DNA of 64,000 bases from a phage. The stretch is taken from the sequence record PZ445554.1, one strand, 5' to 3'. Shown here piece by piece: positions 502 through 45,784 of this stretch (positions within the stretch are counted from its first letter, which is position 1; every line of letters begins with the position of its first letter). Both the position numbers and the translations under genes were made by a program. The notes beneath the pieces are model-generated. The model did no database searches and was not told the origin of the DNA. It saw nothing but the letters and a program-made list of their open reading frames with translations.

Positions 502-651
502 TTACTGCATGACTGTGATAACTGTCATGATAACACGTTGAATTCCGAACGCAAGAAGACCTCCTGCTACGGCTGGAACAACGCCTAAACCCGTCAGTAA
601 AATGCTACCAGATACTAATGCAGCGCTTGTAATACCAATGAATGGACTCAT
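502..651 (-). CDS. Small hydrophobic protein (49 aa), not in ORF track (<60 aa)
   Basis: ATG overlaps gene 52 stop (ATGA); translation MSPFIGITSAALVSGSILLTGLGVVPAVAGG... ends TAA at 502. Confidence 0.4.
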   Translation of the reverse strand: MSPFIGITSAALVSGSILLTGLGVVPAVAGGLLAFGIQRVIMTVITVMQ

Positions 652-1976
652 TTGATTTCCTCTAAATCTTTGGTGTATTCGGTAACTACATCAGTAGTTT
701 TCCAATATTCGTTTTCTTCTTTTTTAGCTTTAGCTTCTTCAGCAAGTTTCTTTGCTTCGTCGGAAGTCATATGAAAAATATTCATTCCAACTAGTTTATC
801 AACATAAGAAGAATACATATCAATTTTAGAAAGTTCTTCGGTCAGTTCTTTACGAGTTTTACCCTGTACAACAATTTCACCTGAAATTACTTTCTTAATG
901 AAATGTGCCTTGGCAAAAGCTAAACGAAAAGCTGACTCAGTTTCTTTAATTTTGTTATCAATTCGTTTTTGGACATAAGTTTTACGAACTTCAACGAAGT
1001 CTTTAATTAAATCAACCACGTTATCGTAAACTTGTAGTTTTCCTTTCTCATTAATAACCGTAATATTCTGAGAACGACGCTCAATCAACCCGAAGTCTTT
1101 CATAATTTTTGCATGGCGTTCTTCTTCGTTATCGCTCAAAGAGTATTCTTTGCGGAATTTAACTTTGAAGCCAAAGCCATGCTCACCACAAGCATCATCC
1201 CATGTAATGAAGCCTTTATCTTCAAGCGGGTCTAAGATTTTACTCACATAAGTTTCACGATCATACTTATATGGAATCTCAGTGATATGCATTTGAGTTC
1301 GTGAAGTAAACTTGTATGTTCCACGAATTTCATATTGCCCATCAATTTCAACGACTTCACCACGAAATTCTGGGAATTCTACCTTCGGTTTAGTTACTTT
1401 CTTTCCTTGAAGAGCTTGCAGTACAGCTTTCTTGACAGAAGAAACACTATGAGGAAGAATGTAAGTTGCATAACCAGTTGCAATACCGGAAACACCATTA
1501 AGAAGAACGGTAGGAATAATAGGCAAATAGAAAGCAGGCGGAATGTGTTCTTTATCTTGATGTACTGGAGCATATTCAGTATCTTTATATACGTTATAGA
1601 AATTTTTACTTACACGAGCAAAAATATAACGACTTGCCGCTGCCTTTTGGACAGTACGAGAACCGAAGTTTCCTTGACCATCTAACAGAGGAAAGTTATT
1701 ATTCCAAGTGTTAGCCATCAAAGCGCCTGCGTCTTGTGCAGAGTTTTCGCCATGGTGATATCCGAGGTCCGCTACACCACCTGCAATAGAAGCGAGTTTG
1801 TGAAACTTATCTTTATTTCCTCGTGCCAAATCAAGAGCTCGAGCAATAACAAATCGTTGAACTGGCTTAAATCCATCAATCATATTTGGGATAGCACGAT
1901 TTTCAACCGTGTACATAGCATAAGCCAATGCTTCATTATCAATGATACTTTTTAAATCGCGATTATTCAGTTGCAT
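648..1976 (-). CDS. 52: DNA topoisomerase II medium subunit gp52
   Basis: ORF track 442 aa; ATG at 1974-1976 (rev); length and N-terminus MQLNNRDLKSIIDNEALAYAMY match recalled T4 gp52. Confidence 0.9.
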   Translation of the reverse strand: MQLNNRDLKSIIDNEALAYAMYTVENRAIPNMIDGFKPVQRFVIARALDLARGNKDKFHKLASIAGGVADLGYHHGENSAQDAGALMANTWNNNFPLLDGQGNFGSRTVQKAAASRYIFARVSKNFYNVYKDTEYAPVHQDKEHIPPAFYLPIIPTVLLNGVSGIATGYATYILPHSVSSVKKAVLQALQGKKVTKPKVEFPEFRGEVVEIDGQYEIRGTYKFTSRTQMHITEIPYKYDRETYVSKILDPLEDKGFITWDDACGEHGFGFKVKFRKEYSLSDNEEERHAKIMKDFGLIERRSQNITVINEKGKLQVYDNVVDLIKDFVEVRKTYVQKRIDNKIKETESAFRLAFAKAHFIKKVISGEIVVQGKTRKELTEELSKIDMYSSYVDKLVGMNIFHMTSDEAKKLAEEAKAKKEENEYWKTTDVVTEYTKDLEEIK

Positions 1977-2366: not shown

Positions 2367-2824
2367 TAATATGCCTGCAAAACAAATTTAAAGTTATCAG
2401 CCAACATACGGTTCATTTCTTCAAGTGTTTGATACTCAGAATGATGATTACGAGTAAACGCCAAAGCTAACTGACCTTTACCAAATCCTGTCGTCAGAGG
2501 TTTCATCTTAGAAGCAGGCAGATAAAATACTGTGTATGGAACATTGTTATTTGCAATAGTACGCGCAAGCTGAGACCGACGCTGACGAATATGACTTAGA
2601 ACCGCACTGAATCCTTGCTTAGAACGCTGATTACCTACATAAAATCGTGCAGACACGCACGGATTACTAAATGGACGACCATCTAATTTACTCACTAAAA
2701 AGTAAAATCCAGGTTTAGATAAAATATCTTTATGCGGAGTTCCCAAAAACCACTCACCGCCCTTGATTGTACCAATAACAGTAGCGCCTGCATTATTCAG
2801 ATCAGTAACAGTCATATATTTCAT
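2366..2824 (-). CDS. ndd: Nucleoid disruption protein Ndd
   Basis: ORF track 168 aa ORF; true start at internal ATG ([16 protein letters not shown]) preceded by GAGGAAA Shine-Dalgarno, giving 152 aa as in T4 Ndd. Confidence 0.8.
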
Positions 2825-2884
2825 ATTAATTTCCTCTAAATTATTTTCTACTCCAAGGCCGCATGGATACACACGGCCATTAAA

Positions 2885-3100
2885 TTAATCGTCGCAGTCG
2901 ACGCTCAATTCCCAGAATTCTTCTACGGTATAAGTTTCAGTATCATTTTCAATACAGAAACGTTCATTACTATTGTTTGCTAAAGTAGCATTAACTGTCA
3001 TTTTTTCGCTAGTGCTCTTAAGAGGTGAAATACGAATTAACTGATCACCGTTATCTAAACAAAAAATTTCACCAACTTTTACATCTTTAAAACTTTTCAT
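2885..3100 (-). CDS. Hypothetical protein (71 aa), ndd-denB interval
   Basis: ORF track; ATG at 3098-3100 (rev); GAGGTGA Shine-Dalgarno. Confidence 0.55.
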   Translation of the reverse strand: MKSFKDVKVGEIFCLDNGDQLIRISPLKSTSEKMTVNATLANNSNERFCIENDTETYTVEEFWELSVDCDD

Positions 3101-3780: not shown

Positions 3781-4040
3781 AGTTCAATCTCAGCGATTTT
3801 CATTTCATTATTGTTAATAGCATTTTTAAGACTATCCGAAAGAATTACATTCCAGTGGTCATTCATATGACCATTAACTAAGCGTGTAATTTCTTCGGGA
3901 GTTGAAAAATAAGGCGTATCAGACTCCCAATGCGATAATCCTAAGCGAGTATAAATCATGCCTTCATCATCGCTAGAATATTCAACTGACACAAACTCAT
4001 CAGTTATTTTATGTTTAGCGTAATAAAATTTAAATTTCAT
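3777..4040 (-). CDS. Hypothetical protein (87 aa)
   Basis: ORF track 3777..4139; N-terminal 33 codons are the translated promoter leader; real ATG at 4040 after GGAGAG. Confidence 0.55.
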   Translation of the reverse strand: MKFKFYYAKHKITDEFVSVEYSSDDEGMIYTRLGLSHWESDTPYFSTPEEITRLVNGHMNDHWNVILSDSLKNAINNNEMKIAEIEL

Positions 4041-4073
4041 TTTACTCTCCAAATCCGTATCAGTTGATAGTTG

Positions 4074-4104
4074 TATAGTACCACGGTCCTTGTGGTATGT
4101 AAAC
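4074..4104 (-). promoter_or_regulatory. T4-type early promoter with conserved leader
   Basis: Minus-strand GTTTACATACCACAAGGACCGTGGTACTATACAACTATCAACTGATACGGATTTGGAGAG. Confidence 0.55.
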
Positions 4105-4120
4105 CATTTTGTGAAATTTT

Positions 4121-4678
4121 TTAAATGGAAAGATACCATCCGCTGTAGTTGCTTTTTCTTACAACCTTACGAAGGTCTTCTCTATCACCGATGAACTTCG
4201 GAGTGTATTGGATGACACCTGGATGAATTTCTTTAGTGTTGAATATAATTATACAGTCAGCGACTTGATGATTTAGAATGGGCCCTAGATTTATTCCAGA
4301 ACCATATGGATACTCTCCGCTGCATCCTGTTGTCACCGAAATCCAACGTGAGTCAGTTTGATGTGTCTTAACTTCTACACGAAGCCCGCAGTATCTTGGA
4401 TGCGCCAATACATCCCATGCATATGTGTACGGATCATCGACATCTTCTTGACCTTTGTTAACATACCCGCTCAGCCAATCTGCTACAAAAAACTCTGCGT
4501 ACACAGCGATACGGCATCTTTCGATAACTTCTGCCTTATCCTGATTTGGGTTTTGTTTTAAAGAGTATCTTGCAGTATCAACAATTTTGACCTTCATTTC
4601 ACTAGTCAAGTCACTGTTCGATAGGGTAAATGTCGGAATCTGAAATAGTCTCTGTAACCCCGGATTCGTTTTCTGCAT
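4121..4678 (-). CDS. denB: Endonuclease IV DenB
   Basis: ORF track 185 aa (same length as T4 DenB); AAGGAAAG Shine-Dalgarno; adjacent to rIIB region as in T4. Confidence 0.7.
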   Translation of the reverse strand: MQKTNPGLQRLFQIPTFTLSNSDLTSEMKVKIVDTARYSLKQNPNQDKAEVIERCRIAVYAEFFVADWLSGYVNKGQEDVDDPYTYAWDVLAHPRYCGLRVEVKTHQTDSRWISVTTGCSGEYPYGSGINLGPILNHQVADCIIIFNTKEIHPGVIQYTPKFIGDREDLRKVVRKSNYSGWYLSI

Positions 4679-4940
4679 TTAAACTTTCCTTTTTACCACT
4701 AAGATAAGCGTTATACACTTTAAGAGTACCATAGTAAATTCGATCATTTTCATCTAAAGAATTACGATCAAGTTCATCGAGATTCTTTTTGTCCATGACT
4801 ATAACATCATTGCAGTAAAGAACTCCAAGTTTTTCATGCCCAAACTCGAATTTATTGCAGTACACAATATTAGCGTAATGATTACCATGTAGAGAAATTT
4901 CTTTTATGTCGGTGTCACCGATATTCATACAATAAATCAT
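4611..4940 (-). CDS. Hypothetical protein (109 aa)
   Basis: ORF track; ATG at 4938-4940 (rev); 3-prime end overlaps denB start by 68 nt. Confidence 0.5.
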   Translation of the reverse strand: MIYCMNIGDTDIKEISLHGNHYANIVYCNKFEFGHEKLGVLYCNDVIVMDKKNLDELDRNSLDENDRIYYGTLKVYNAYLSGKKESLNAENESGVTETISDSDIYPIEQ

Positions 4941-4957
4941 AATTTACCTTAAAACAA

Positions 4958-4973
4958 AAGGGCCGAAGCCCTT
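4958..4973 (-). terminator. UUCG-tetraloop hairpin (AAGGGC-CGAA-GCCCTT on plus strand)
   Basis: Inverted repeat with CGAA loop, read as C(UUCG)G in the minus-strand transcript. Confidence 0.5.
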
Positions 4974-4976
4974 ATT

Positions 4977-5171
4977 TTATTTGAATTGTTCAATTCTTTT
5001 CTCTAAACAGTCAGCATAAGATTTCATTGAGATAAACTGCGAAAGTAACAGTTCTTGCTCAACTGCACTAACTGTTAGAAACTTTGCGCTTTCTAAAAAT
5101 TTGCTCAGTGCATTAATTTTGAGCATTAATTGATCGTATTCTTCTTTTACTCGTGCTTGATAACCTAACAT
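4977..5171 (-). CDS. Hypothetical protein (64 aa)
   Basis: ORF track; ATG at 5169-5171 (rev). Confidence 0.5.
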   Translation of the reverse strand: MLGYQARVKEEYDQLMLKINALSKFLESAKFLTVSAVEQELLLSQFISMKSYADCLEKRIEQFK

Positions 5172-5185
5172 AATTTTCCTTAGTT

Positions 5186-5201
5186 AAGGGCCGAAGCCCT
5201 T
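5186..5201 (-). terminator. UUCG-tetraloop hairpin at 3-prime end of rIIB
   Basis: AAGGGCCGAAGCCCTT inverted repeat. Confidence 0.5.
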
Positions 5202-6138
5202 ATTTAAATTGTTCAGTAACGTCTTCAACTACTTCGTATTGACAGGTACGCATTTTAGCATCGTTGTAATCAATCGGAATTGATACTACATCACGCGGAT
5301 GTACTTTAACTTTTACAACTCGGCTGGTTGAACTGCCAAAGTGACGAATATAAGATTTAGAACACACATGCAGACCACGAGAACAAGTTTGTGTATCATC
5401 GTCATTCACACGAGTACGTGGCATTTTAACTACTTTACCCGGACTGTTATCAAAGGTGTTTGAGTGACAGTCAAAGTAATTGCTGCGAACTACTTTCCAA
5501 GCATAGAAGTAGCCATCTTCTGTAATTTCAATATCGTTTGCTACCAAGAAATCAAAGAGTCGAGATACTGCTTTTTGGCTTGGGTTTTCCAGCAGATTTT
5601 CCAAGAACGGAAAATAAAATTCAAAGTTTTCGCCTTTTTCCATCGAGTCAAGAATACGATCAACCAAACCAGACCGCAATTCAATATTTTGATAGAACAA
5701 GCTTCCACCTTCAATTCGAACATCGCCGGAAATATATTTTTCAACAGCGCGACGAACATTAATTTTTTGTGCCGCTTCTTCCAACTTATCCGCTACAAGC
5801 AGATTAAGAATTTCCTGGAAGTTTGAATGAGTATTAGGAGTTGCGTTATAAGTTACACCGTCAACAGTAATTGAAATGAATTTTTTAGATGCATTCCAAA
5901 TAATGTCAGATTTAGCAACTGGAGCAATAACTGCATCGCTATTAACTTTAACTGTAATATCACCGCTAATAGTAACTTTAGGGCGTTTAGCTTCTTCAGC
6001 ATTTTTCAAAACACGACGGATTGTGTCAACCGATACATCCTTCCAATAAGCTAATTCCTGCTGAGTGTAATTACCACTTGAATACAGTTTAACAATTTCA
6101 GCTTGTTCGTTTTTGGTCAGGCATTTAATATTGTACAT
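5200..6138 (-). CDS. rIIB: rIIB protein
   Basis: ORF track 312 aa; N-terminus MYNIKCLTKNEQAEIVKLYSS and length match recalled T4 rIIB; directly downstream of rIIA. Confidence 0.9.
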   Translation of the reverse strand: MYNIKCLTKNEQAEIVKLYSSGNYTQQELAYWKDVSVDTIRRVLKNAEEAKRPKVTISGDITVKVNSDAVIAPVAKSDIIWNASKKFISITVDGVTYNATPNTHSNFQEILNLLVADKLEEAAQKINVRRAVEKYISGDVRIEGGSLFYQNIELRSGLVDRILDSMEKGENFEFYFPFLENLLENPSQKAVSRLFDFLVANDIEITEDGYFYAWKVVRSNYFDCHSNTFDNSPGKVVKMPRTRVNDDDTQTCSRGLHVCSKSYIRHFGSSTSRVVKVKVHPRDVVSIPIDYNDAKMRTCQYEVVEDVTEQFK

Positions 6139-6149
6139 AATTTTCCTTA

Positions 6150-8327
6150 TTAGGCCGCAAGGGCCTTCATAGTTTTAGCGATTTGAGAAACTTCATCATC
6201 ACTTAAAGAGTTGCGATATCCGATGAAGTCGGAAACAATACGGAATTTCTTGGTAAACTCAGCAACCATTTTATCACTGTTTTTTGAAGCATTATTTGAT
6301 AATACATCAAAAAGATTAGTTACTGTCCAGATGTCATGACCGATGGTATCTTTTCCACCATTAAAATATACACCGCGCAATGAACTAACTATATTAGCGA
6401 GTCGTGTATATTCTTCAGAAACTTCATCTGTACTGAAGTACTTCATCATAAAATCTAGTTCAGGATACTTGATAATTTTATCAATATATCGTTGAGCTGA
6501 ACTTGAATAACCTACGTACTTATCATAATCTACATCATCAAAAGCATCTACATATAAATCACGCAGAGTTTCAAAAATACATTGGCACTGACCGAGTTCT
6601 TTTACCTTTTTCTGCAAAAGCGGACGAATAACATAAAACTCATTAATGCCAATAAGATTAGCCATACGAATCAAAATATTCATAGATGGATGACAAAGAG
6701 ATGTAGTACCATCCATAGAGAAAATATCAGAACGATGCATATACGCTACATAACCAGTAATTTCATCTGCTTCTGATGTGAGCGTAAATAGTTCCTCTTT
6801 TTCCCAGCGCCCGTCTTTAATTTCAAACTTAAATGCTGTAGCAGCTTTAGGACGAGGAGCTTTACTTTTAACTACCTTTGGAATATAACTTTTTACTAAA
6901 GCTTCAATTTCTGACAAATAATGAATGTTAACTTCATCACTTTCAAACATCGCCATAATGTCAGGAAGTAAATCAATCTGCGATTCTACTTCTGGGTTAA
7001 TAAACAGAAGGCGTTCGTTATGATGAATATTCAAAGTGTTATTAAATTCACTATCATCTAATGCATGCGCTAATCCACGGACAATATTAACACGATTTTT
7101 AATATTGTCAATAACGATATTAATTTTTGTTGTATTAATACCAAACAGACGATAACTTGATGCAACGGCTGAAGTTTCATGACTTTGCTTAATGCGTTTC
7201 AGTCGAGGGTCAAGATTTACTTCATACACAACTCCTGCATTGCATAACTTACTGTCAGGTTCAAACATGCTTTGCATCTTTTTATATGACAGATTTTTAG
7301 TCGTGAATTTGACTGAATTACTAATCATATAATCTCGAGCAGAATATCCCATCTTCATCAATTCACGATATGTGTGACGAGGAGATGTAGATTCTTTAAA
7401 TCGTTTTACATCTTCATTAAATGCTTTCTCACTGAGTTCTTTAACTCGTTCAATAATATTTTTACGAGTACGATCATCTAGTGAAAGAGCTTCGCGTGAT
7501 GGAGCAATATCAAGCGAACCCATTGGAAACTTAATGTAATTCACTTCATTACGAATGCTTAGCCAGTTACGGTCTTTAATAACACCATCGATAGGATAAA
7601 CAATACCGCCATAGATAGCATATAATCCACCACGATCAGGCCAGTATCTTTCTGGATTTACGCCGTAATAATCATCAAAATCCGGAAAATAATCAATTTC
7701 GCGGTCAAGACCATTAATGATAGCCAAATCTTTGAATGGTCGCATGATATAAGAAACTTCATAAGCAAAGTTTCTAAAGTCTTTTTCTTCAACTGGAACT
7801 ACGATTTCAATACCAGTTTTATCATCTGGACCCATTTCTTTTACGAATGTAGGTTTAATCTGTGGACCATCACCATCCATGTAAGCTACATAACCACGAA
7901 TTTCACCTTTATGATACGAAGTAATACTAAATGTATCAGTATAACTAAATGGAGATTTAGAACCTAAACCAAATCCGCCAATAAAGTCATTAGATTCAGC
8001 CTTAGATGAACTGAAGTATGAATTATACAGACCAGGAGAATTATCATCACCTTGAATATCAAAATCACTCATACCCGGACCAAAATCTCGGCAAACAAAT
8101 CGCGGGTCTAATCGTCCTGGAACTTGAATGATAAATTTTTCAGGATTTCCATTGAGAGCATGGGCATCAATCATGTTAGTAATCAATTCACGGACTACTG
8201 CGCGAATCTTGTTTGTATACAAATCAGATGACAGAATTTTAAATACTTTAGGAGATGCTGTGATGCTAAATGCTTTTGATTTAGAACCATTACCAAGAAT
8301 TGTTTCTTTTTCAGTGGTGATAATCAT
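6150..8327 (-). CDS. rIIA: rIIA protein
   Basis: ORF track 725 aa; N-terminus [20 protein letters not shown] and length match recalled T4 rIIA. Confidence 0.9.
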
Positions 8328-8337
8328 AATTTCCTCA

Positions 8338-8541
8338 TTAATTCATATTACGTTTAATAACTTCGGCAACTTCTAGTAGTTCATCTTTAGTTGCGGTGTC
8401 GGATTGAATTTTATCTCTAATATCCTTAAAGCGGTTTTTAAATTCTTCGGCTTCTCCCATATCGAAAAAGCGTTGAATGATTCTATATTCTCGATGAACT
8501 GCTTTATCAAAAAGTTCTAAATTTACTTTATATGATTTCAT
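8338..8541 (-). CDS. Hypothetical protein (67 aa), syntenic with T4 rIIA.1
   Basis: ORF track; ATG at 8539-8541 (rev). Confidence 0.6.
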
Positions 8542-8565
8542 TTCAATATCCTCATTTGCCCAATT

Positions 8566-8596
8566 AATTATACCACATCCTTGTGGTAAAGTAAAC
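8566..8596 (-). promoter_or_regulatory. T4-type early promoter (GTTTAC-N17-TGGTATAAT) with palindromic spacer CCACAAGGATGTGG
   Basis: Minus-strand GTTTACTTTACCACAAGGATGTGGTATAATTAATTGG; overlaps gene 39 stop. Confidence 0.55.
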
Positions 8597-10413
8597 TACT
8601 GACTCATCCATTCTTTACGAAGGTCAGCATTATCTCCCATGAGCATTTCAAAAAGCTCTTTCCAGTTCTCAGGAAGTTTAACAACATCATATACTGGATT
8701 TTGAATCATCTCACGATATTCAGATTTTTCCAAAGAGCCAAGTCCTTTAATATAACGGATGCTATGTTTAGGTAGAGCATCTTTGGCACTCTCATATTCA
8801 GCGACTGTATAAAACCATTCTTGTTTTTTACCGACCTGAGCGATGATTACAGGAGTTTTGACAAAGCGAATTCGTCCTTGCTCAAACAATTCTGGCCAAT
8901 TACTAAAAAATCCAAGCAGAGAAGGATAAATGCTTCCTAGACCATCATGGTCAGCATCAGTCATAATAGCGATATTGTGATAATTCAAGTTTTCAGCTTT
9001 TTCACCGAGAACTAATCCAGTGATTGCGCAAATATCAAATAGTTCTTTGTTTTTAAGCATATCTGCATAAGACATACCCCAACTGTTGAGAACTTTACCG
9101 CGCAATGGATAACCACCGTGAAGTTCTTTATCACGAACATCAATAAGATATCCGATAGCCGAATCACCCTCAGTTAAAAATAATGTAGTATCAGCATCTT
9201 TACCACAAAGATTCGCTTTGATATGTTTATGAACCTTAGCTTTAGAAGCCTTTTTAGCTGCTTTAGTTTCTGCTGCTTTTTCTGCCGCCAATTTACGAGC
9301 CAAAGCAGCTTCAATAATCGGCATTAGAATTGCTTCATTATTCAAAATAGCACGTGAAATCTTTTTAGCGTCAAGTTGAATATGACTACGAATTTCGCCA
9401 AATGGAGAAGTCAAACGCTCTTTAGTTTGAGAATCAAATCGCATGTTTTTCATATCACGAACAAACATAACGATAGTCAAACATTCTTTGACACGCGCTT
9501 TAGTCACATCAATTTTGAACTTACGTTTGATTTGTGGAATAAGGTCTTCACAAATATCATCCATAACACAGTCAATGTGATGGCCACCATTCTTAGTATG
9601 AATGTTATTGACGTATGTTAATTGACGAAAACCATCCGGTGAACGACCAACCGCAATAGAACAATTTTCTTGTTCTTGAACGATAGCATGTTCATCATAC
9701 TGTCGTGCATATTTCTTAAAATTGCCCTGAACCTTTTTACCATTAAAGGTAAATTGAATATCAGGATAAACTACCGCAAGTGTCTGGAGACGATCTAGTG
9801 TAATGTCAAGATAAACTTGGGACAGCTCATTAGTTTCAAATGACATAAAATCAGGAATGAAAGTAACACGAGTTCCTTTCCATTTTCCAGGAATATCTTC
9901 CCATGATTTATTTTCCATGCCGTTTGAACAACGAACTACAATATTATTTTGACCGTCACCAGTTTCACCGACAAACATCGCAGAAAAAATGTTTGTCAAA
10001 CTAGAACCAACGCCATTCATACCGCCAGTGACGCGTTCTTTATCATCACCAAAGTTACCACCTGCTTTTGGAATAGTCCATGCAGCAACTGGACCAGGAA
10101 TTTCTTCACCGGTAGGTGTTTTAACCATCGCTTGTGGAATACCGCGACCGTTATCTTCAACTGTTACCTGATTATTTTTAATGGTAACATTAATTTTATT
10201 TGCGAATTTAAACTTAGTACGAATACCTTCATCTACTGAGTTATCGATAATTTCATCAATAAGCTTAACAAGACCAGGTACATACTGAACACTTTCCCAT
10301 TTACCAAACAGAAAGCGCTCATGCATTTCATTAGCAGAAGAGCCAATGTACATGCCACTACGCTTTTTGATATGTTCAATATCGCTCAGAATTTTAATTT
10401 CATTCTTAATCAT
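8596..10413 (-). CDS. 39: DNA topoisomerase II large subunit gp39, single uninterrupted gene (605 aa)
   Basis: ORF track 606 aa from GTG; ATG one codon in (MIKNEIKILSD); GyrB-type ATPase motifs (EDNGRGIP); C-terminal region that T4 encodes in gene 60 is fused in frame. Confidence 0.9.
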   Translation of the reverse strand: MIKNEIKILSDIEHIKKRSGMYIGSSANEMHERFLFGKWESVQYVPGLVKLIDEIIDNSVDEGIRTKFKFANKINVTIKNNQVTVEDNGRGIPQAMVKTPTGEEIPGPVAAWTIPKAGGNFGDDKERVTGGMNGVGSSLTNIFSAMFVGETGDGQNNIVVRCSNGMENKSWEDIPGKWKGTRVTFIPDFMSFETNELSQVYLDITLDRLQTLAVVYPDIQFTFNGKKVQGNFKKYARQYDEHAIVQEQENCSIAVGRSPDGFRQLTYVNNIHTKNGGHHIDCVMDDICEDLIPQIKRKFKIDVTKARVKECLTIVMFVRDMKNMRFDSQTKERLTSPFGEIRSHIQLDAKKISRAILNNEAILMPIIEAALARKLAAEKAAETKAAKKASKAKVHKHIKANLCGKDADTTLFLTEGDSAIGYLIDVRDKELHGGYPLRGKVLNSWGMSYADMLKNKELFDICAITGLVLGEKAENLNYHNIAIMTDADHDGLGSIYPSLLGFFSNWPELFEQGRIRFVKTPVIIAQVGKKQEWFYTVAEYESAKDALPKHSIRYIKGLGSLEKSEYREMIQNPVYDVVKLPENWKELFEMLMGDNADLRKEWMSQ

Positions 10414-10440
10414 CACTTATCCTCGTTTGGTTTCGGGAAT

Positions 10441-10466
10441 ATTATACTCCGGTAATCATAAAGCTA
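10441..10466 (-). promoter_or_regulatory. Possible middle promoter for gene 39 (MotA-box-like TAGCTTTA, 12 nt, TATAAT)
   Basis: Minus-strand TTTAGCTTTATGATTACCGGAGTATAAT. Confidence 0.35.
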
Positions 10467-10483
10467 AAGGCCCGAAGGCCTTT
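10466..10483 (-). terminator. UUCG-tetraloop hairpin (AAAGGCC-CGAA-GGCCTTT)
   Basis: Perfect inverted repeat directly after stop of upstream gene. Confidence 0.5.
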
Positions 10484-10743
10484 TATTTAAAACGAATAGT
10501 TGAATCCTTAAAGAACAGCCCAGAACATACTGTTCCTTCTACTTTCTGCCCAGTAGGTCCAATAGCACGAAATCCAGTATGTTGGAAATCATTTTCAGAA
10601 CAACCAAACCAATTATATCCAGTGATTTCAATATTAGTAAAACCACTTGAAGATAAAACTTTGGTTGCATTATCAGCATCAGTACATCCTGCTAAAGACA
10701 CTGCTAATACTAATGCCGCGATAGAACGATTAATATATTTCAT
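10483..10743 (-). CDS. Putative lipoprotein (86 aa)
   Basis: ORF track 10483..10752 (GTG); ATG at 10743; signal peptide with lipobox LAGC (MKYINRSIAALVLAVSLAGCTD). Confidence 0.55.
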   Translation of the reverse strand: MKYINRSIAALVLAVSLAGCTDADNATKVLSSSGFTNIEITGYNWFGCSENDFQHTGFRAIGPTGQKVEGTVCSGLFFKDSTIRFK

Positions 10744-10748
10744 AATTT

Positions 10749-11120
10749 TCACTTAAATTTAATGGCTTGAAGAAGACTAATAATTCTCAAGCGACTTCCT
10801 TCATCTTTAACTGTAAAAGAAAGAGGGTCACCAGATTTCATAGTGATAGTGCATTCAAAAGCAAAACCTTCGGGAACTTCTTCGAAGAAGTCAAATTCTT
10901 CATCATAAATTAGAACATTACTCTGAAAACTGTGAAGAATTTTTCCGTCATTTCCAGATGCTGTACTAATCATTGTAACATTATTACCTTTCATATCTTC
11001 AACGATAAATTCGCTTGTAGATATTACAGCATTAATAGAACCATTCCTATAAATAGCAGAAAATAGATATTTCTTTTCTTCACCTTCGCGAATGCGATAT
11101 TTCTTACCGATTTTAAACAT
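10749..11120 (-). CDS. Hypothetical protein (123 aa)
   Basis: ORF track; ATG at 11118-11120 (rev). Confidence 0.55.
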   Translation of the reverse strand: MFKIGKKYRIREGEEKKYLFSAIYRNGSINAVISTSEFIVEDMKGNNVTMISTASGNDGKILHSFQSNVLIYDEEFDFFEEVPEGFAFECTITMKSGDPLSFTVKDEGSRLRIISLLQAIKFK

Positions 11121-11122
11121 AA

Positions 11123-11299
11123 TTACCCTTTAAGTAAGTCGTAAAATCCGCCATTCACATGCTTAGGGGCAGAGACTAACCGAATAGCAATCCGATGACA
11201 ATCAGGACATACATCAGTATCTCTTTCAGAAATTTTCTTGATTTTTTCGTATTCTTTTGCGCAGTCTTTTGATTGACATTTATAATCATAAAGCGGCAT
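11123..11299 (-). CDS. Small zinc-ribbon protein (58 aa), not in ORF track
   Basis: AAGGAA Shine-Dalgarno then ATG; MPLYDYKCQSKDCAKEYEKIKKISERDTDVCPDCHRIAIRL; CxxC...CxxC spacing. Confidence 0.5.
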   Translation of the reverse strand: MPLYDYKCQSKDCAKEYEKIKKISERDTDVCPDCHRIAIRLVSAPKHVNGGFYDLLKG

Positions 11300-14911: not shown

Positions 14912-15158
14912 GAATAGCTTCCTCAAATTTAATCAGTAATTTACAAACACTTTCATCTAGTGTAATTACCGTATCTGTATTACTGTGATATGATTGTTTT
15001 TCAATTCGTTTAATTGCTAATATAGTATCACTTATAAGATAAAGCTTATGAAGGAGCTCAGCTCCTGTTACCATAACATTAAGATTATCTTGCTTATTAG
15101 TATGCTTCCTTATACCATCTATTAGACGATTTAAATATTTTGAATTGATGTTAATCAT
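14898..15158 (-). CDS. Hypothetical protein (86 aa)
   Basis: ORF track; ATG at 15156-15158. Confidence 0.55.
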   Translation of the reverse strand: MININSKYLNRLIDGIRKHTNKQDNLNVMVTGAELLHKLYLISDTILAIKRIEKQSYHSNTDTVITLDESVCKLLIKFEEAIRGNN

Positions 15159-15164
15159 ATATCC

Positions 15165-21098: not shown

Positions 21099-21335
21099 TT
21101 AACCACCTATTTCTGTTGGCGTAAACATTGCAGCATTCTTAGTTTTCCAGTCAGCTGCATCAGAAACTACAGTAGAATATGCCGCCTTTTCAGAAGGAAA
21201 GGTCTGATAATGAGAATCTGCAATACGATGCTCGTTAGAATAGATTTCAAACGGAACAGAAACTTCCATACCTTTAACTTCTTTGCCTTCACCCGCTGGA
21301 TGAGTAAAGGTCTTGATGTTAACGAAACCACCCAT
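21099..21335 (-). CDS. soc: Small outer capsid protein Soc (78 aa)
   Basis: ORF track; YVNIKTF... HYQTFPSEKAAYSTV motifs as recalled for Soc; preceded by late promoter. Confidence 0.85.
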   Translation of the reverse strand: MGGFVNIKTFTHPAGEGKEVKGMEVSVPFEIYSNEHRIADSHYQTFPSEKAAYSTVVSDAADWKTKNAAMFTPTEIGG

Positions 21336-21366
21336 AATAAACTCCTTTATTGTTTAATTACAGGTG

Positions 21367-21374
21367 TATTTATA
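21367..21374 (-). promoter_or_regulatory. T4 late promoter TATAAATA for soc
   Basis: Plus-strand tatttata; minus-strand TATAAATA about 30 nt upstream of soc ATG. Confidence 0.6.
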
Positions 21375-21548
21375 TCAGTCTTCAATGAAAACTTGTGCCA
21401 GGAATTCGTGTTCATCTTGAATTTGTTTATATAAAGCCATTACAGCATTTATATTAGAGCTATCTACTTTAAGTTGATAAGCATACCACTCGTGTAAATT
21501 AATTAAAGCTTTTTGACGTCTAATAAATTCTTCTTTGGATATTTTCAT
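21375..21548 (-). CDS. Hypothetical protein (57 aa), not in ORF track
   Basis: ATGA overlap with upstream ORF; MKISKEEFIRRQKALINLHEWYAYQLKVDSS. Confidence 0.45.
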   Translation of the reverse strand: MKISKEEFIRRQKALINLHEWYAYQLKVDSSNINAVMALYKQIQDEHEFLAQVFIED

Positions 21549-21745
21549 TTTGAATGCTCTATAATTAATTTTAAGGCTTTTTCACTGACAAAAATTTCAT
21601 CAGGACCTTCTTCTACAACCCAATCAACCATACGAAGCTGATTAGATAAGAGCTCGTATGTGAGCTCTTTGTCATAATTTTTAAATAGCTGGTCAATACG
21701 TTTCTTGCGGGCTTTCTTAAGCTGGCGTTTATTTAAACGAGCCAT
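21545..21745 (-). CDS. Hypothetical basic protein (66 aa)
   Basis: ORF track 21545..21748 (TTG); ATG at 21745 overlapping gene 56 stop. Confidence 0.5.
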   Translation of the reverse strand: MARLNKRQLKKARKKRIDQLFKNYDKELTYELLSNQLRMVDWVVEEGPDEIFVSEKALKLIIEHSK

Positions 21746-22263
21746 CAATAACCTCGGTCTTGACGAGCGAAATTTTCAGCATTTTTCAGATAATAAAGTT
21801 TAAAGATTTCTTCAGCTGACATTCCAAGAGCAATGAATTTATTCATGAAAAAGTGAAATTGGTCAATCAGTTCAAATTTAATTTCAAGCTGATCTTCGGG
21901 AGATAAATCTTGAATTTTCTTGGATTGCATTTCAGAATAACGTTTCTTCCAAGGTTTCCATACGGCAGAAGCTTCTTTTTCACCATTACTCATACCACCA
22001 AGAGAAGTATATAGCTCGCGAGTTTCATCTGCGATATAATCGTCTTGGTTTCGCAGCCAAGCAAGAACTTCTCCTGCAGTTTCAAGTGAATCAGGATGAC
22101 GATTTGTTTCTGGTTTATCATTAGCCAAACGAATCTGTAAATGCCGCTGCATATCAAGCATAACCTGCAGTGGGTCAATATTGTGCATAATATTCTCAGC
22201 ATATGCACGAGTTGCTTTATCAACACCTTCGATCAAATGAGCACATTCATTAAAGTGAGCCAT
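21745..22263 (-). CDS. 56: dCTPase-dUTPase gp56 (MazG-like)
   Basis: ORF track 21745..22371; start at internal ATG (MAHFNECAHLIEGVDKA) after AAAGGA, giving 172 aa as recalled for T4 gp56. Confidence 0.85.
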   Translation of the reverse strand: MAHFNECAHLIEGVDKATRAYAENIMHNIDPLQVMLDMQRHLQIRLANDKPETNRHPDSLETAGEVLAWLRNQDDYIADETRELYTSLGGMSNGEKEASAVWKPWKKRYSEMQSKKIQDLSPEDQLEIKFELIDQFHFFMNKFIALGMSAEEIFKLYYLKNAENFARQDRGY

Positions 22264-22336
22264 TATTTTTCCTTTCAATTCATGGATTAATAGATTAATT
22301 ATACAATAAATATATAAAGCAATAAGGAGGATATAT

Positions 22337-27986: not shown

Positions 27987-28829
27987 TTAATCAACTGCTA
28001 TTGGATGAATAGCATTAAACTTATGAAATGCTTCTGATTTTTCTTTACGCGAAACACACATGCGAAGAACCTTTAGTGGTTCATCTTCTTCACCCAACGA
28101 TTTTCGTTTTTCAATATTAGAAGTTTTCCAACGAGCTTGCTCTGGAAACTCTCTATTGATTTGCTCAAGCGCTCTATTATGTTTAGAATTACTACGAATT
28201 GAACTGCACCCGCCAGGAGCTTGTGCTTTTCCAGATACAACCAGATATTTGAACAAGGCCAAATGCGGATAACCTTGATTAATTAAATTGAGAAATGCAT
28301 ACATATCTTCGCATAAATCAATTTTTCCATACCCAATTTGTTCTGTGGTAAGTTTTCCGAGGTCATACCATGTATTCGTGAATCCGTATGAATTTTCACG
28401 ATAATTACCCCAAGATGAAGTAATTTTAAAAATAGGTAGACGAGCATGGCCATGATAATACCCGCAATCCATGGCATCTTCAACGTATTGAATCAATTCA
28501 TAGAACTGTTCACGAGTCAATTGATTGACTTTATCTGCGCAGCGCCGATCATCTCTCTTTCGCATTGAACTCATACGAATAGTAGTATCATCGTCAATCA
28601 TCCAGATTCGTTGACCTGCATACATATCAGTAATTGCTTTACGAGTTCCAGCAATTCCGTTGACATCATCAGGAATAGTTATAATTTTAGCTCTAGACCC
28701 ATAGGCATCATAATAAGCTTTTTCTTCGTGTTCACGCACTACAATATGCGGTTCATAATCAGTCGGAAACATATCAAGGGCAGAAACTGCCCCTACACGT
28801 TGATAGCTTGGAATTACGAATTGAATCAT
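27987..28829 (-). CDS. Putative glycosyltransferase (DxD motif) at the beta-gt locus; candidate beta-glucosyl-HMC alpha-glucosyltransferase
   Basis: ORF track 27987..28835 (GTG); ATG at 28829 overlapping gene 42 stop (ATGA); IWMIDDDTT DxD motif; not similar to recalled T4 beta-gt. Confidence 0.6.
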   Translation of the reverse strand: MIQFVIPSYQRVGAVSALDMFPTDYEPHIVVREHEEKAYYDAYGSRAKIITIPDDVNGIAGTRKAITDMYAGQRIWMIDDDTTIRMSSMRKRDDRRCADKVNQLTREQFYELIQYVEDAMDCGYYHGHARLPIFKITSSWGNYRENSYGFTNTWYDLGKLTTEQIGYGKIDLCEDMYAFLNLINQGYPHLALFKYLVVSGKAQAPGGCSSIRSNSKHNRALEQINREFPEQARWKTSNIEKRKSLGEEDEPLKVLRMCVSRKEKSEAFHKFNAIHPIAVD

Positions 28830-29566
28830 TTCCACTCACCATTATAATCTTTTTTCACAATATGAGTTTCGCCAGTATTCCACCAATGATCAACCAAGTA
28901 AAAATGACGAGAATATACATGAAGACTTCCAACATTCCATATAATAGAACCTGCTTTATACTGACGAGTTGAATCGCCTGCATTCAAATCAGATACTAAT
29001 TTATCTAATACGTATTTTTGCCATGCATAATCATTACGGAATCCGAAGACCACATCATTTGAGCGCATGCTTACTACTGCATTGACTTTCTTATCACGAA
29101 TCAGGTACTGTACTGTATTAGTACACATGAAATCTGACATACCATCTTTATTGTAGTCAAATTGCATGGATGGACGAGTATAAATCATGATACCACGTCG
29201 AGAATCAGGATTTTGACCAAGTTCAGCTAAACACATATCATACTGAGCATAGTTATCTTCTGACCAGATAGCCCAACCATAATTCGAGTTAATTTCGCCT
29301 TTAGAAGATGCTACCTGCTGCCAAATCTTTGGTGTTTCACCTGGAATATCTTTAACAAACAAGCTCTTAGATTTATACCATTCAAGTTCACGCTGAATGT
29401 ATTCATCATTAAGAGCGCCAAAAATAAACGGTTCATCTGCTACAAATGATGCGCCAATAATTTCAATAGTTTTAACGCCAGTTTTATCAACTACGAAATC
29501 TTTTTCTTTTAATGCAAGCCCCAAATGAAGACGGATTTCTTCAACTGTCATAGAGTCACTAATCAT
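28826..29566 (-). CDS. 42: dCMP hydroxymethylase gp42
   Basis: ORF track 246 aa, same length as T4 gp42; thymidylate-synthase-like fold motifs. Confidence 0.9.
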   Translation of the reverse strand: MISDSMTVEEIRLHLGLALKEKDFVVDKTGVKTIEIIGASFVADEPFIFGALNDEYIQRELEWYKSKSLFVKDIPGETPKIWQQVASSKGEINSNYGWAIWSEDNYAQYDMCLAELGQNPDSRRGIMIYTRPSMQFDYNKDGMSDFMCTNTVQYLIRDKKVNAVVSMRSNDVVFGFRNDYAWQKYVLDKLVSDLNAGDSTRQYKAGSIIWNVGSLHVYSRHFYLVDHWWNTGETHIVKKDYNGEWK

Positions 29567-38590: not shown

Positions 38591-38777
38591 TATCTAAAAT
38601 GTTGAAGTTAAAAGATACAGCCCAGTCAGTGCAGACCGTAACCTTTTTAATACAATTATCTTCAACTTCTAGTGGTTCAAACCAGTATTCAATAATTTCT
38701 TTATGACCAATATCATCTTTTACTTCGCATTCAAAATGCTGACTCATCATAACATTTTTAAATTCATCAAAAGTCAT
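38514..38777 (-). CDS. Hypothetical protein (87 aa)
   Basis: ORF track; ATG overlaps gene 47 stop. Confidence 0.5.
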   Translation of the reverse strand: MTFDEFKNVMMSQHFECEVKDDIGHKEIIEYWFEPLEVEDNCIKKVTVCTDWAVSFNFNILDNDTPKSLRDMAVSCIKDAYCEVFDI

Positions 38778-39793
38778 TGTGTTGCCTCTACATATAGCTG
38801 ATTTGCATATTGAATAAGTGCTTCACGATCAGAATCAGTGATGTCTGGAATTGCATTAATATACTCTTCCATTAATGTCTGAAGCGATTGAACTTCAACT
38901 TCTTCACTGTCATCTGACTCGACAGAGTTATCAATCTTTGACACAACTCGTAATGAATGCACAACTTTTTCTAGTTCAGATTCGAATTTCGTCAGATTTT
39001 TGTCTACTTCAGTTACTATAACACGTACTGATAGATTTGTAAAATCTTTATAGTCAATTTTTCCTTTAAATGGATAATGAATTCTACGATGCCAGGTAGT
39101 ATTGTTTGGAATAAATTCCATTCGTTCTGTTTCTGTATCAAACATCCAGAACCCACGAGGGTCATTCTCGTCACCTGCTGTTAGTGTCCATGGTGTCCCA
39201 ATATATCTGACGTTTGCAGCCTCAGAAATAGTATGGAAGTGACCAGACCACACTTCTTTATAAGTCTTAAGGAAATCAGGTTCAAGACCGTGAGATTTCA
39301 TTCCTTTATAAAAATAAAATCCATTCAGTTCCCAGTGACCAACACAAAAAGAAGCAGATGAAGTTTTGATGTGTTCAAGAATTTCACCAGTATTTTCTTC
39401 GCACATCCAAGGAATTAAATCAATCAAACACCCGTCAAAATCTACTGTAGTAGGCTTATCATATACTTTAACATTAGGATATTTAGCCAAAAGCTCAGTA
39501 GAGGCATTTGGATGCATTACATTTTTGTAGTGGAGATCGTGATTTCCTACAATAGTATGTAATGTGATTCCAGCGTCATCAAGCATTTGAACTATTTCAC
39601 GGGCAAACTCCATAGTTTTATGTGTGATTGCTTTTCGCACATCAAAAATATCACCATATTGAATCCATACAGTAATTCCATTTTTCTTAGAATATTCTAT
39701 CGCTTGCTTAATTCCATCAATTTGAATACCGCGAATCCACTCATCATCAGCTTTAACGCCTAAATGCCAATCACCCAAGTTTAGTATTTTCAT
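38774..39793 (-). CDS. 47: Recombination nuclease subunit gp47 (Mre11/SbcD-like)
   Basis: ORF track 339 aa; phosphoesterase motifs LGDWHLG, GNHD. Confidence 0.9.
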   Translation of the reverse strand: MKILNLGDWHLGVKADDEWIRGIQIDGIKQAIEYSKKNGITVWIQYGDIFDVRKAITHKTMEFAREIVQMLDDAGITLHTIVGNHDLHYKNVMHPNASTELLAKYPNVKVYDKPTTVDFDGCLIDLIPWMCEENTGEILEHIKTSSASFCVGHWELNGFYFYKGMKSHGLEPDFLKTYKEVWSGHFHTISEAANVRYIGTPWTLTAGDENDPRGFWMFDTETERMEFIPNNTTWHRRIHYPFKGKIDYKDFTNLSVRVIVTEVDKNLTKFESELEKVVHSLRVVSKIDNSVESDDSEEVEVQSLQTLMEEYINAIPDITDSDREALIQYANQLYVEATQ

Positions 39794-40394
39794 GGTGTCT
39801 TTTCCATCCTAATTTAGCTGCTTTTGAAACCAGTTCTTTAATTTTTCCTTTTGTCCATTCAGGACCAGGAGGTTCATGACATAACATTTGCTTAACTCCG
39901 TTATTATACCATTTTTTACCTTTATTATGTGATGAAGCTTTAAATTTATTTGACCTTCCTTTTGCATAACCTTCTGGAATATAAGGCAAAAAGGCAGATT
40001 TTCCTGTTAATGGATCATGTGAATGTATATTTCCTTTACAATTATGAGAACCATATAATGGATGATTTTGTCCTTTATTATCTCTTCCAAATGAACCTTT
40101 TGGAGCAGCATATGACATATTAAAGAATAATGGATTTTTAACTGCATCATGCAATCGTTGATAATATAACTCGCATTTAATAGCTTCTTCACGCGTATCA
40201 AATTCAGCTAAAATGCATGAATCAAATAAGTGAGGATTATCTGAAAGCTCTTTATTATAAATTTTCTTATACTTTTTAGATAAAACTGAACCATGATATC
40301 CAGCTAAATGCCTATCTAAAGACGTAGATCCAATATAAAAAGGAGGAAGTTTATCTCCACTATATATTGTTAAATAAGTTATATATTTTTTCAT
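39771..40394 (-). CDS. GIY-YIG family homing endonuclease-like protein (207 aa)
   Basis: ORF track; N-terminus YLTIYSGDKLPPFYIGST (GIY...YIG) with downstream conserved Glu; basic C-terminal region; overlaps gene 47 start by 23 nt. Confidence 0.65.
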   Translation of the reverse strand: MKKYITYLTIYSGDKLPPFYIGSTSLDRHLAGYHGSVLSKKYKKIYNKELSDNPHLFDSCILAEFDTREEAIKCELYYQRLHDAVKNPLFFNMSYAAPKGSFGRDNKGQNHPLYGSHNCKGNIHSHDPLTGKSAFLPYIPEGYAKGRSNKFKASSHNKGKKWYNNGVKQMLCHEPPGPEWTKGKIKELVSKAAKLGWKRHHENTKLG

Positions 40395-41773: not shown

Positions 41774-41797
41774 TTAATATCCTCTTTGTTTTGGTTT

Positions 41798-43267: not shown

Positions 43268-43345
43268 TTTCACCTCTTAGCTCAATTCATAGATCTATTA
43301 TATCATAATATTTGAAGATCTATCTTAAAGCATAGAGAATATCAG

Positions 43346-43615
43346 TTATCTAAGTAAGCAGTATGCTTGGAACACTTTCTCCATCATCTTTTTAAATTCA
43401 TGAATATCTATATAATGACTAGTTAGATCAGCATGATATAAAAAGTCTAAAAACTTTTCATGTGTACTAACATATTCACTTTCATTTAATTCAGAAACAT
43501 GACTTTCCCAATATCCAACACCAGTCTTATTTGGGAAAAATGAAATTTTCATGTATTGGTCAACATAGAAAATGCCATAATTTTCAATAGTAATAGAAAT
43601 ATTAATAAATTTCAT
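43346..43615 (-). CDS. Hypothetical protein (89 aa)
   Basis: ORF track; ATG confirmed. Confidence 0.5.
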   Translation of the reverse strand: MKFINISITIENYGIFYVDQYMKISFFPNKTGVGYWESHVSELNESEYVSTHEKFLDFLYHADLTSHYIDIHEFKKMMEKVFQAYCLLR

Positions 43616-45175: not shown

Positions 45176-45499
45176 TTAATCTTCTATGATATCTCTATCA
45201 TATCCAAGTGAAATGAGAGTTTCTTTGAAGTGTTTAATGTTCTTTTGTCTAGAATCATTAATGAAAATGACTGGATAACGAATGTTAAGAGATGTGAATC
45301 CAGCGCGTTTAGCAAGAGATACAATCAGTGGACGATCATACTCAATCTTACCATTATTTGTAAGAACTTTATAGAAAGTAAAAGGAGCATTGAGCTCCTT
45401 TAGAAGTTTTGTAACTGATTGACATCCAGGACAACGACCTACTTCATCTGGAATTCCATAGACTTCAATCTTATTCTTTAAGTTCGAGTTTTGTTCCAC
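45176..45499 (-). CDS. nrdH: NrdH-like glutaredoxin (CPGC active site); start uncertain, no in-frame ATG
   Basis: ORF track 45176..45628; N-terminal 43 codons are a shadow of the overlapping ORF; candidate GTG start at 45499 after AAGGAA; IEVYGIPDEVGRCPGCQ. Confidence 0.5.
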   Translation of the reverse strand: MEQNSNLKNKIEVYGIPDEVGRCPGCQSVTKLLKELNAPFTFYKVLTNNGKIEYDRPLIVSLAKRAGFTSLNIRYPVIFINDSRQKNIKHFKETLISLGYDRDIIED

Positions 45500-45734: not shown

Positions 45735-45784
45735 GTCAAAACCCTTCCAACTCTCTACCACATACCGCTCAAAACTAATTATAA

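Follow-up and report, generated by a model that had tools for sequence, protein, structure and literature searches.

Is the large subunit of the DNA topoisomerase of this phage encoded by a single gene, or by the two pieces known from T4? In T4, an insert of about 1.1 kb adds a 43-aa C-terminal extension to gp39 and carries a mobA pseudogene with 60.1. The T4 gp60 has a 30-aa N-terminal extension, a diverged 16-aa homR, and a 50-nt coding gap after its Gly46 GGA codon. Because of this 1117-nt insert, the T4 enzyme is made of three subunit types and ribosomal bypassing is needed for its synthesis. The window analyzed here is a stretch of 64,000 nucleotides of phage DNA (sequence record PZ445554.1), with the same enzyme and the same flanking genes as T4. 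An earlier note on this stretch had proposed a single 605-codon gene 39, with no separate gene 60, at positions 8596-10413.

A complete reading frame for the large topoisomerase subunit

The proposed frame exists as described, on the minus strand, which the earlier note had left unstated. In the list of open reading frames, the minus strand is open over 8596..10416, and a GTG start would give 606 aa. With the ATG one codon further in (10413..10411) as the start, the frame has 605 codons and a TAA stop (8596..10413). The ATG at 10413 is likely the true start, because of its spacing from the Shine-Dalgarno sequence GAGGA and because the same MIKNEIK start is annotated in T4, T2, and T6. By direct reading, GAGGA (10420..10424, minus strand) lies 6 nt before the ATG and only 3 nt before the GTG. 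The GTG start at 10416 was set aside because of this spacing and the annotated homologues. Stop codons have a frequency of 0.0785 per codon on the same strand, at which a 605-codon open frame would arise by chance with a probability of about 3e-22; the frame is therefore not a product of chance.

Direct reading of the minus strand upstream of the gene revealed a GGCCTTCGGGCC hairpin at the end of a 39.1-like gene (10480..10469) and a TATAAT -10 element (10446..10441). Phage DalCa has the same hairpin, which carries the annotation of a rho-independent terminator there. The element TTTAGCTTTA (10468..10459), putatively MotA box-like, lies 12 nt upstream of TATAAT. Together, the two elements, at 10441..10468, would make up a putative promoter of the T4 middle type. 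A generic promoter and terminator scan returned sites no more common than in shuffled sequence, and missed both the hairpin and the TATAAT upstream of gene 39. Downstream of gene 39 are rIIA.1 (8338..8541, minus strand; Pfam T4_RIIA1, E 1e-33) and then rIIA (6150..8327), a gene order that is colinear with T4, T2, and T6.

The product carries the Pfam domains HATPase_c, DNA_gyraseB, and TOPRIM_C and matches PHROG 543, "DNA topoisomerase II large subunit" (E 4e-295). The GHKL ATPase domain (PF02518, HATPase_c) covers aa 47-185 (9859..10275, minus strand). A motif scan found its N-box EIIDN at aa 54-58, G1 DNGRG at aa 87-91, and G2 GMNGVG at aa 131-136. The transducer domain (PF00204, DNA_gyraseB) covers aa 250-384 (9262..9666, minus strand), with the QTK loop at aa 329-331 (9429..9421, minus strand) in the same scan. 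The TOPRIM metal-binding core is found in a single chain (8941..9171, minus strand). According to the motif scan, it contains EGDSA at aa 415-419 with E415 (9171..9157), the DNA-contact loop PLRGK at aa 436-440, and DADHDG at aa 486-491 with D486 and D488 (8958..8941), all on the minus strand. The TOPRIM C-terminal associated domain (PF16898; aa 519-604; 8602..8859, minus strand) falls inside the portion that constitutes gp60 in T4. All catalytic motifs are thus present in the scan, and the TOPRIM residues carry the same numbers as in T6 gp39. In T6 Topo II, residues E415, D486, D488, R438, K440, and D490 have been described (PMC11461880).

The order of GHKL ATPase, transducer, and TOPRIM is shared with GyrB, ParE, and the N-terminal half of eukaryotic Topo II. 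The phage protein aligned over its full length with NCBIfam PRK05644 (residues 4-604, E 2e-69) and with human TOP2A/B and yeast Top2 (E 1e-56 to 1e-59). The score against the GyrB/ParE equivalog was 234 bits, compared to a curated cut-off of 740. Because the score is so far below these cut-offs, the protein belongs to a distinct phage subfamily. The DNA-cleavage subunit is encoded by gene 52 (648..1976, minus strand), a GyrA/ParC-like protein of 442 aa (Pfam PF00521, E 9e-77) that is matched by the NCBIfam topo IV/gyrase A models and has an RY catalytic dyad at aa 116-117 in the motif scan. The gp52 protein is short and lacks the C-terminal DNA-wrapping domain of GyrA. The phage topoisomerase is not known to introduce supercoils. 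The phage enzyme relaxes DNA (PMC11461880).

Relation to the T4, T2, and T6 enzymes

One frame spans what in T4 is distributed over two proteins. Residues 1-473 correspond to T4 gp39 at 98.3% identity, and residues 472-605 to residues 27-160 of gp60 at 95.5%. Within the latter, residues 492-605 and gp60 47-160 are identical at 114 of 114 positions. The earlier note had stated that its claim would fall if the C-terminal 90 residues did not align with T4 gp60. The outcome favors the claim, as the end of T4 gp60 is matched at 100% identity by the last 90 residues and even by the last 114. The 90 residues assigned there to the gp60 portion were a minor slip, as this portion is really of about 130 residues (aa 476-605).

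The proteins of T6 and T2 are closer still. T6 gp39 (YP_010067157.1) has 605 aa, is colinear from end to end, and agrees in domain order and in catalytic residues, with three substitutions (A145V, D173T, and Q526H) and 97.3% identity of the gene at the DNA level. Its neighbors are likewise rIIA, rIIA.1, and a 39.1-like gene, and its enzyme is likewise composed of two subunits, gp39 and gp52. T2 gp39 (AP018813, 2447..4264) is also an unsplit protein of 605 aa and has only two amino-acid differences, F70L and A145V. The A145 residue of the window, in the ATPase domain, is V in each relative examined, a conservative change. DNA divergence from relatives is about 3%, yet there are only 1-4 amino-acid changes, which indicates that gene 39 is under strong purifying selection. 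The exact protein was found in public collections on four contigs, the longest of 168,939 bp.

The product matched T6 gp39 over its full length in PDB 8YLU chain C (1383 bits), and also in 8YO1, 8YO5, 8YO7, 8YOD, and 8YON. The T6 gp39 structures also include 9IMJ (Nat Commun 2024, PMC11461880). The T6 gp39/gp52 enzyme is a heterotetramer with ATP-dependent relaxation activity (PMC11461880). From the T6/T4 structures and assays in that work, gp39 and gp52 of the present phage would form an A2B2 heterotetramer as in T6. Such an enzyme would cut a gate DNA duplex, pass a second duplex through it, and relax supercoils with ATP. We infer this ATP-dependent strand-passage activity from the T6 enzyme, whose gp39 is only 3 aa away (PMC11461880).

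Taken together, it is practically certain in our judgment that 8596..10413 is Tequatrovirus gene 39, encoding the whole 605-aa B-type subunit of a type IIA DNA topoisomerase, with the MobA cassette absent. The sequence contains nothing that would speak against this reading. This is known biology, and structures of a near-identical T6 protein have been solved. For annotation, we advise "DNA topoisomerase II large subunit (gp39, unsplit)". Two subunit types are to be expected, as in T6, compared to three in T4.

The empty site of the MobA element

The junctions found by blastn delimit an empty site of the MobA element of 64 nt (8932..8995, minus strand), at codons ~474-494. Window positions 10500..8996 align with T4 5415..3911, and positions 8931..8538 with T4 2793..2400, placing the junctions at aa 473 and at G491 plus 9 nt. 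The site is 64 nt long here; in its place, T4 has 1117 nt, and eight other split phages have 1106 nt. The 64-nt segment is identical to that of T6 at 64 of 64 positions and to that of T2 at 62 of 64, the two differences from T2 being silent. Against T4 homR, window positions 8987..8942 gave only 78% identity by blastn. These junctions agree with the report that the clade-1 MobA element deletes a 64-nt segment (10.1101/2022.08.31.505936).

The frame is unbroken across aa 466-494. In a codon comparison of the window, T2, and T4, the Gly491 codon GGT (8941..8943, minus strand) is followed directly by Leu492 CTA and then by GGA AGC, with no coding gap. In T4, the 50-nt coding gap is placed after the GGA take-off codon that corresponds to Gly491. 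When RB55 MobA was used as tblastn query against the whole 64-kb window, the best E value was 3.3 and nothing rose above chance. The tails of gp39 (CTE, ~43 aa) and gp60 (NTE, ~30 aa) gave only E values of 0.3-0.9 by tblastn over the whole window, and the bypass sequence only chance matches of 9-14 nt by blastn-short over the whole 64 kb. The claim that one uninterrupted frame covers both T4 parts, with neither the mobA insert nor the bypass, was therefore correct.

An empty site may also be a target. According to the preprint 10.1101/2022.08.31.505936, T2 has been shown by experiment to be a target and recipient of MobA, and Bonocora et al. (2011) reported that MobA nicks T2 within the 64-nt region. 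As the 64-nt site of the window matches those of T6 and T2 so closely, sensitivity to MobA is predicted. Positions 8932..8995 would be the predicted region of MobA recognition and nicking, and the phage is predicted to be able to receive the cassette when its host is also infected by a MobA+ phage. A modest use is that it might serve, like T2, as a further natural recipient for homing and translational-bypassing experiments.

Ancestry of the unsplit gene and its value as a lineage marker

There are two ways in which gene 39 would have come to be unsplit in this phage. The MobA homing-endonuclease cassette may never have been acquired, or it may have been lost without trace, and the sequence would look the same either way. 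In T4 and in about 8% of its relatives, the cassette splits the TOPRIM domain between gp39 and gp60 and brings with it the 50-nt translational bypass. The earlier note had considered the unsplit gene to be the ancestral arrangement reported for T2/T6-type phages. The proximity to the T2 and T6 proteins and the unsplit genes of distant relatives support this. Because relatives at 69-82% identity and the cellular homologues are unsplit, the unsplit gene is very probably the ancestral state. All 27 IMG/VR relatives, the most distant at 69% identity, matched along the entire protein. This search used exact peptide patterns and recovered only five close loci, all of them unsplit. In the nine more distant relatives whose frames were read, each gene was a single ORF of 605-652 aa. 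Cellular GyrB, ParE, and Topo II align straight across the insertion site.

Two other readings of the continuous frame were considered. In one, it is an artefact, for example of an assembly that collapsed the insert, or the copy is non-functional. We found no evidence to support this, and hundreds of phages that were sequenced independently have the same 1818-nt ORF at this position. In addition, the exact protein recurs on its four contigs, and the gene combines intact catalytic motifs with the signature of strong purifying selection, so that we assign this reading a negligible probability. In the other, the unsplit gene is derived: an ancestor carried the MobA cassette, as T4 does, and then lost it, either through exchange with an unsplit phage in the same cell (recombination or gene conversion) or through secondary fusion. 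The 5' 1419 nt of the gene do group with the split phages T4/RB55 (97.1-97.5% identity) and with the unsplit DalCa (97.7%), and the 3' 336 nt are nearest to T6 (99.4%) and T2 (99.1%), a pattern that would be compatible with recombination having broken and rejoined the gene close to the site. In other clades, the element has been reported to be progressively lost (10.1101/2022.08.31.505936). However, the 3' signal amounts to 2 versus 4 mismatches in 336 nt and is not significant, the neighbor-joining tree of the gene has no bootstrap support, and the genomes are mosaic. Moreover, the known secondarily fused or endonuclease-less forms all keep the CTE/NTE tails (10.1101/2022.08.31.505936), remnants of which are absent from the window (tblastn E >= 0.3), and the 64-nt segment is of the parental type, as in T6, and not like T4 homR. 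Removal of a former cassette is thus improbable. A related proposal starts from the 5' 1.4 kb, which groups with T4/RB55, and from the T6-like 3' end and 64-nt target. In this view, the gene 39 of the window is among the closest surviving empty-site alleles to the cassette-bearing gene 39 of T4. It would then preserve the T4 lineage as it was before the insertion, or else a clean, traceless loss of the MobA/bypass cassette through recombination at the site. We consider this unlikely as well, if somewhat less so. If true, the two genes would allow a natural comparison of before and after in work on how the bypass element is gained and lost.

With the unsplit gene very probably ancestral, its use for classification can be addressed. 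The earlier note had gone further and proposed that it marks the phage lineage. As a diagnostic character, the unsplit state would place this phage in a distinct T2/T6 lineage apart from T4. In favor of this reading, the unsplit gene and a near-identical protein are common to T2 and T6, the window has a T2/T6-type beta-glucosyl-HMC-alpha-glucosyltransferase where T4 has segA and beta-gt, and dam is absent from the gene 56/61 locus, as in T6. The distribution of the split gene argues against it. Among the approximately 507 phage records in which the gene was matched nearly in full, the T4 insert was present in only 41-43. These 507 are records in which one place covered at least 80% of the gene; pieces of split genes were joined in this count (H91, for example, matched at 96% in two pieces), so the 41-43 were subtracted from it. 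Approximately 465 of the records (about 92%) are therefore unsplit. With about 92% of Tequatrovirus records in this condition, it is a shared, primitive state with little power to discriminate. Split phages occur in no fewer than six ICTV species (T4, e112, snuabm, sgallinarium, hy01, and hy03) and are interspersed with unsplit phages in the gene-39 tree (neighbor joining of 19 annotated records, without bootstrap). The insert is a mobile homing-endonuclease cassette, for which several independent insertions have been reported (Manning & Atkins, 10.1101/2022.08.31.505936).

The DNA of the gene itself also counts against this reading. Its 5' 1419 nt are nearer to T4/RB55 than to T6 (96.6%) and to T2 (95.4%, the lowest value in the sample). 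Across the window, the best reference shifts from block to block, so that the genome is a mosaic. The claim of a lineage marker was thus not borne out, and we regard a diagnostic role of the unsplit gene as highly improbable. T4 is the exception, and in genome scans a missing T4 peculiarity should not be taken as a marker of lineage.

In the first 25 kb of the window, the top database matches were to other phages at 95-97% identity, none exceeding 97%. The beta-glucosyl-HMC-alpha-glucosyltransferase gene (27987..28835, minus strand; phrog_842, E 1e-88) lies in a region where the window is colinear with both T2 and T6, and which is replaced in T4. It is a genuine T2/T6-type character of this phage.

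Identity of the gene and its product

The large topoisomerase subunit of this phage is encoded by a single 605-codon frame at window 8596..10413, at the coordinates that the earlier note gave with no strand; the strand is minus. The open frame in the ORF listing runs over 8596..10416 (606 aa from GTG), and an ATG one codon inside, at 10413..10411, leaves 605 codons plus the stop. The sequence GAGGA at 10424..10420 is spaced 6 nt from this ATG but only 3 nt from the GTG, and a MIKNEIK start is annotated likewise in T4, T2, and T6; the ATG at 10413 is therefore the likely start. Stops are expected about every 13 codons at the base composition of this strand, which gives 605 open codons a chance probability of ~3e-22.

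Gene 39 is flanked by rIIA (6150..8327), rIIA.1 (8338..8541; Pfam T4_RIIA1), and a 39.1-like ORF (10483..10752, minus strand), in the T-even order. The 39.1-like product is 89 residues long and carries a lipoprotein-type signal (…LAVSLAGC…); for T4 39.1 the annotated length is 65 aa. The ORF that follows (10749..11120, minus strand; 123 aa; phrog_622, weakly resembling goF) is present in T6 and ACG-C40 but not in T4. Megablast of 8000..11200 gave 562 matching phage records, almost all of them from Tequatrovirus, the best at 98.0% identity, and the best matches across the first 25 kb of the window reached 95-97%. The window thus belongs to a T4-like phage genome with no identical record in the collection.

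Identification as topoisomerase gene 39 was correct. Pfam places HATPase_c at aa 47-185, DNA_gyraseB at aa 250-384, and TOPRIM_C at aa 519-604, and PHROGs labels the protein 'DNA topoisomerase II large subunit' (E 4e-295). GyrB/ParE NCBIfam models align end to end with scores far under their equivalog cut-offs. One chain carries the full set of type IIA topoisomerase B-subunit catalytic motifs: N-box (aa 54-58), G1 box (aa 87-91), G2 box (aa 131-136), QTK loop (aa 329-331), EGDSA including E415, PLRGK (aa 436-440), and DADHDG including D486 and D488. The A-type partner subunit is gp52, whose gene lies at 648..1976 (442 aa; PF00521, E 9e-77; RY dyad).

In the PDB, all 605 residues are covered by the match to the T6 Topo II chain, for which cryo-EM and crystal structures are available (8YLU and others), as they are for a fused T4 gp39-gp60 (8YO3 and others). 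T6 Topo II has been reported to be a heterotetramer of gp39 and gp52 that relaxes DNA in an ATP-dependent manner, with E415, D486, and D488 binding the metal (PMC11461880). The enzyme of this phage would, by analogy, be the two-subunit form. The T4 split separates E415 from the DxD motif; here both are on one polypeptide, and ribosomal bypassing is not required. The ~70-aa 'TOPRIM insertion' of T4 hangs outside the domain and leaves activity unchanged (PMC11461880).

The T4 split site and the probably ancestral arrangement

The claim that one frame spans both T4 proteins was borne out by comparison with the gp39 and gp60 sequences of NC_000866, from which the annotated bypass had been taken out. 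By blastp, residues 1-473 are 98.3% identical to T4 gp39 1-473, and residues 472-605 are 95.5% identical to gp60 27-160. The last 114 residues match gp60 47-160 at 114/114 positions, so that the C-terminal 90, on whose alignment the claim had been staked, are identical. T2 gp39 differs at two positions (F70L and A145V) and T6 gp39 at three (A145V, D173T, and Q526H). A145 (NIFSAMFVG; window 10006..10023 region) is Val in T2, T4, T6, and 10 other close relatives examined, and is the sole residue separating this protein from those of ACG-C40, AR1, and RB10. Judged from these sequences, it is the only unusual residue of the protein. At codons 326-328 (window 9438..9430), T4 NC_000866 reads MR-LIR-QTK, as opposed to MR-FDS-QTK in the window, T6, and RB55 (species T4). 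In DNA the difference is a -1/+1 compensating frameshift pair adjoining the catalytic QTK loop; an early sequencing error or a peculiarity of the lab strain behind the reference is the probable cause.

At the nucleotide level, window 10500..8996 aligns with T4 5415..3911 (97.5% identity), 8987..8942 with T4 2899..2854 (78%), and 8931..8538 with T4 2793..2400 (99.0%). In place of the 64 nt at window 8932..8995, T4 has 1117 nt, and the length is 1106 nt in eight further phages with a split gene. Codon comparison shows that the frame departs from T4 gp39 after Ala473, where T4 continues into a 43-aa tail with no window counterpart. At the other end, Leu492 comes immediately after Gly491 (GGT), whereas T4 has GGA, a 50-nt gap opening with TAG, and a second GGA. 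These positions agree with the published MobA element, the insert that splits the gene, which has its 5' end at aa 466-473 and its clade 1 3' end at D490/G491 plus 9 nt, and which deletes 64 nt and replaces them with 'homR', a diverged gp60 piece 67-81% identical to the parental sequence (preprint by Manning & Atkins, bioRxiv 10.1101/2022.08.31.505936). No similarity above chance to MobA, the bypass, or the T4-specific tails was found across the whole 64-kb window.

That the unsplit gene is the ancestral arrangement, as had been proposed, is well supported. Related IMG/VR loci match over essentially the whole protein in 27 of 27 cases, down to 69% identity, and the nine more distant loci read are each a single ORF of 605-652 aa. 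Alignments with cellular GyrB, ParE, and eukaryotic Topo II run straight through the split site, and none of the tails kept by known secondarily fused forms was found in the window. Recombination with an unsplit phage could possibly have removed a cassette without trace; the relatives, the cellular alignments, and the missing tails together argue for the ancestral state.

The 64-nt segment is identical to T6 at 64/64 positions and to T2 at 62/64. As relayed in the preprint, Bonocora et al. reported that MobA nicks T2 inside this region, ~20 nt upstream of the bypass location; cassette-bearing genomes are protected by the bypass and not by homR polymorphisms (bioRxiv 10.1101/2022.08.31.505936). 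On the strength of this identity, the present phage is predicted to be nickable by MobA and able to gain the cassette.

The unsplit gene as a proposed lineage marker

The unsplit gene was also said to mark the phage lineage, a reading that is not supported and should be abandoned. Among about 507 records in which gene 39 matched over nearly its full length, 41-43 carry the T4 insert. The count of 507 joins the two T4 pieces as one place, so that split records were subtracted from it; about 92% are unsplit. Records carrying the split gene come from six or more ICTV species (T4, e112, snuabm, sgallinarium, hy01, and hy03). When the shared 5' 1419 nt of 10 split and 15 unsplit sequences were placed in a neighbour-joining tree, split phages appeared at several separate points and the window grouped with T4/RB55 and DalCa. 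This tree is without bootstrap support, and the genomes recombine, so that reliance should be limited to the scatter and to the raw identities. Over these 1419 nt the window is 97.7% identical to DalCa (unsplit), 97.5% to RB55 (split), 97.1% to T4 (split), 96.6% to T6 (unsplit), and 95.4% to T2 (unsplit). Wider data led to the same conclusion, of independent and recent insertions of an element that remains active in mixed infection (bioRxiv 10.1101/2022.08.31.505936).

The unsplit gene is ordinary here. The exact protein occurs in four contigs of public collections (up to 168,939 bp); its cluster of 281 members, drawn from many Tequatroviruses, bears the name 'DNA topoisomerase II large subunit'. 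Publications already cover the unsplit gene, the T4 split, the MobA cassette, and the bypass, as well as structures of both enzyme forms.

Other differences from T4, T2, and T6

The overall genome is a mosaic, with the best reference differing block by block. A T2/T6-type beta-glucosyl-HMC-alpha-glucosyltransferase (27987..28835, minus strand; phrog_842, E 1e-88; Pfam TAGT) stands where T4 has segA and beta-gt, and distinguishes T2/T6 from T4 better than gene 39 does. Only 20 nt (22304..22323) separate gene 56 from gene 61, colinear with T6, compared to 899 nt with dam in T4 and 1417 nt including a methylase in T2; on this spacing, the phage appears to have no Dam methyltransferase at the usual locus.

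The other T4 homing-endonuclease inserts of this region are missing along with mobA and segA. They are segF, mobB, mobC, and the group I intron of nrdD together with its endonuclease (I-TevII by RefSeq record annotation), and the sites are window ~21281..21757, 41765..41788, 46566..46586, and 47863..47864. Compared with T4, this is an endonuclease-poor genome. A 207-aa free-standing homing-endonuclease ORF (39771..40394, minus strand; phrog_10820 'HNH endonuclease', E 1e-93; weak Pfam GIY-YIG match) lies between gene 47 (38774..39793) and alpha-gt, in a 594-nt block that T4, T2, and T6 lack at this position. Also missing from these three phages are the block with a 96-aa ORF of unknown function (45471..45761, minus strand; phrog_2749), a 260-nt block at 43341..43600, and a 229-nt block at 14936..15164.
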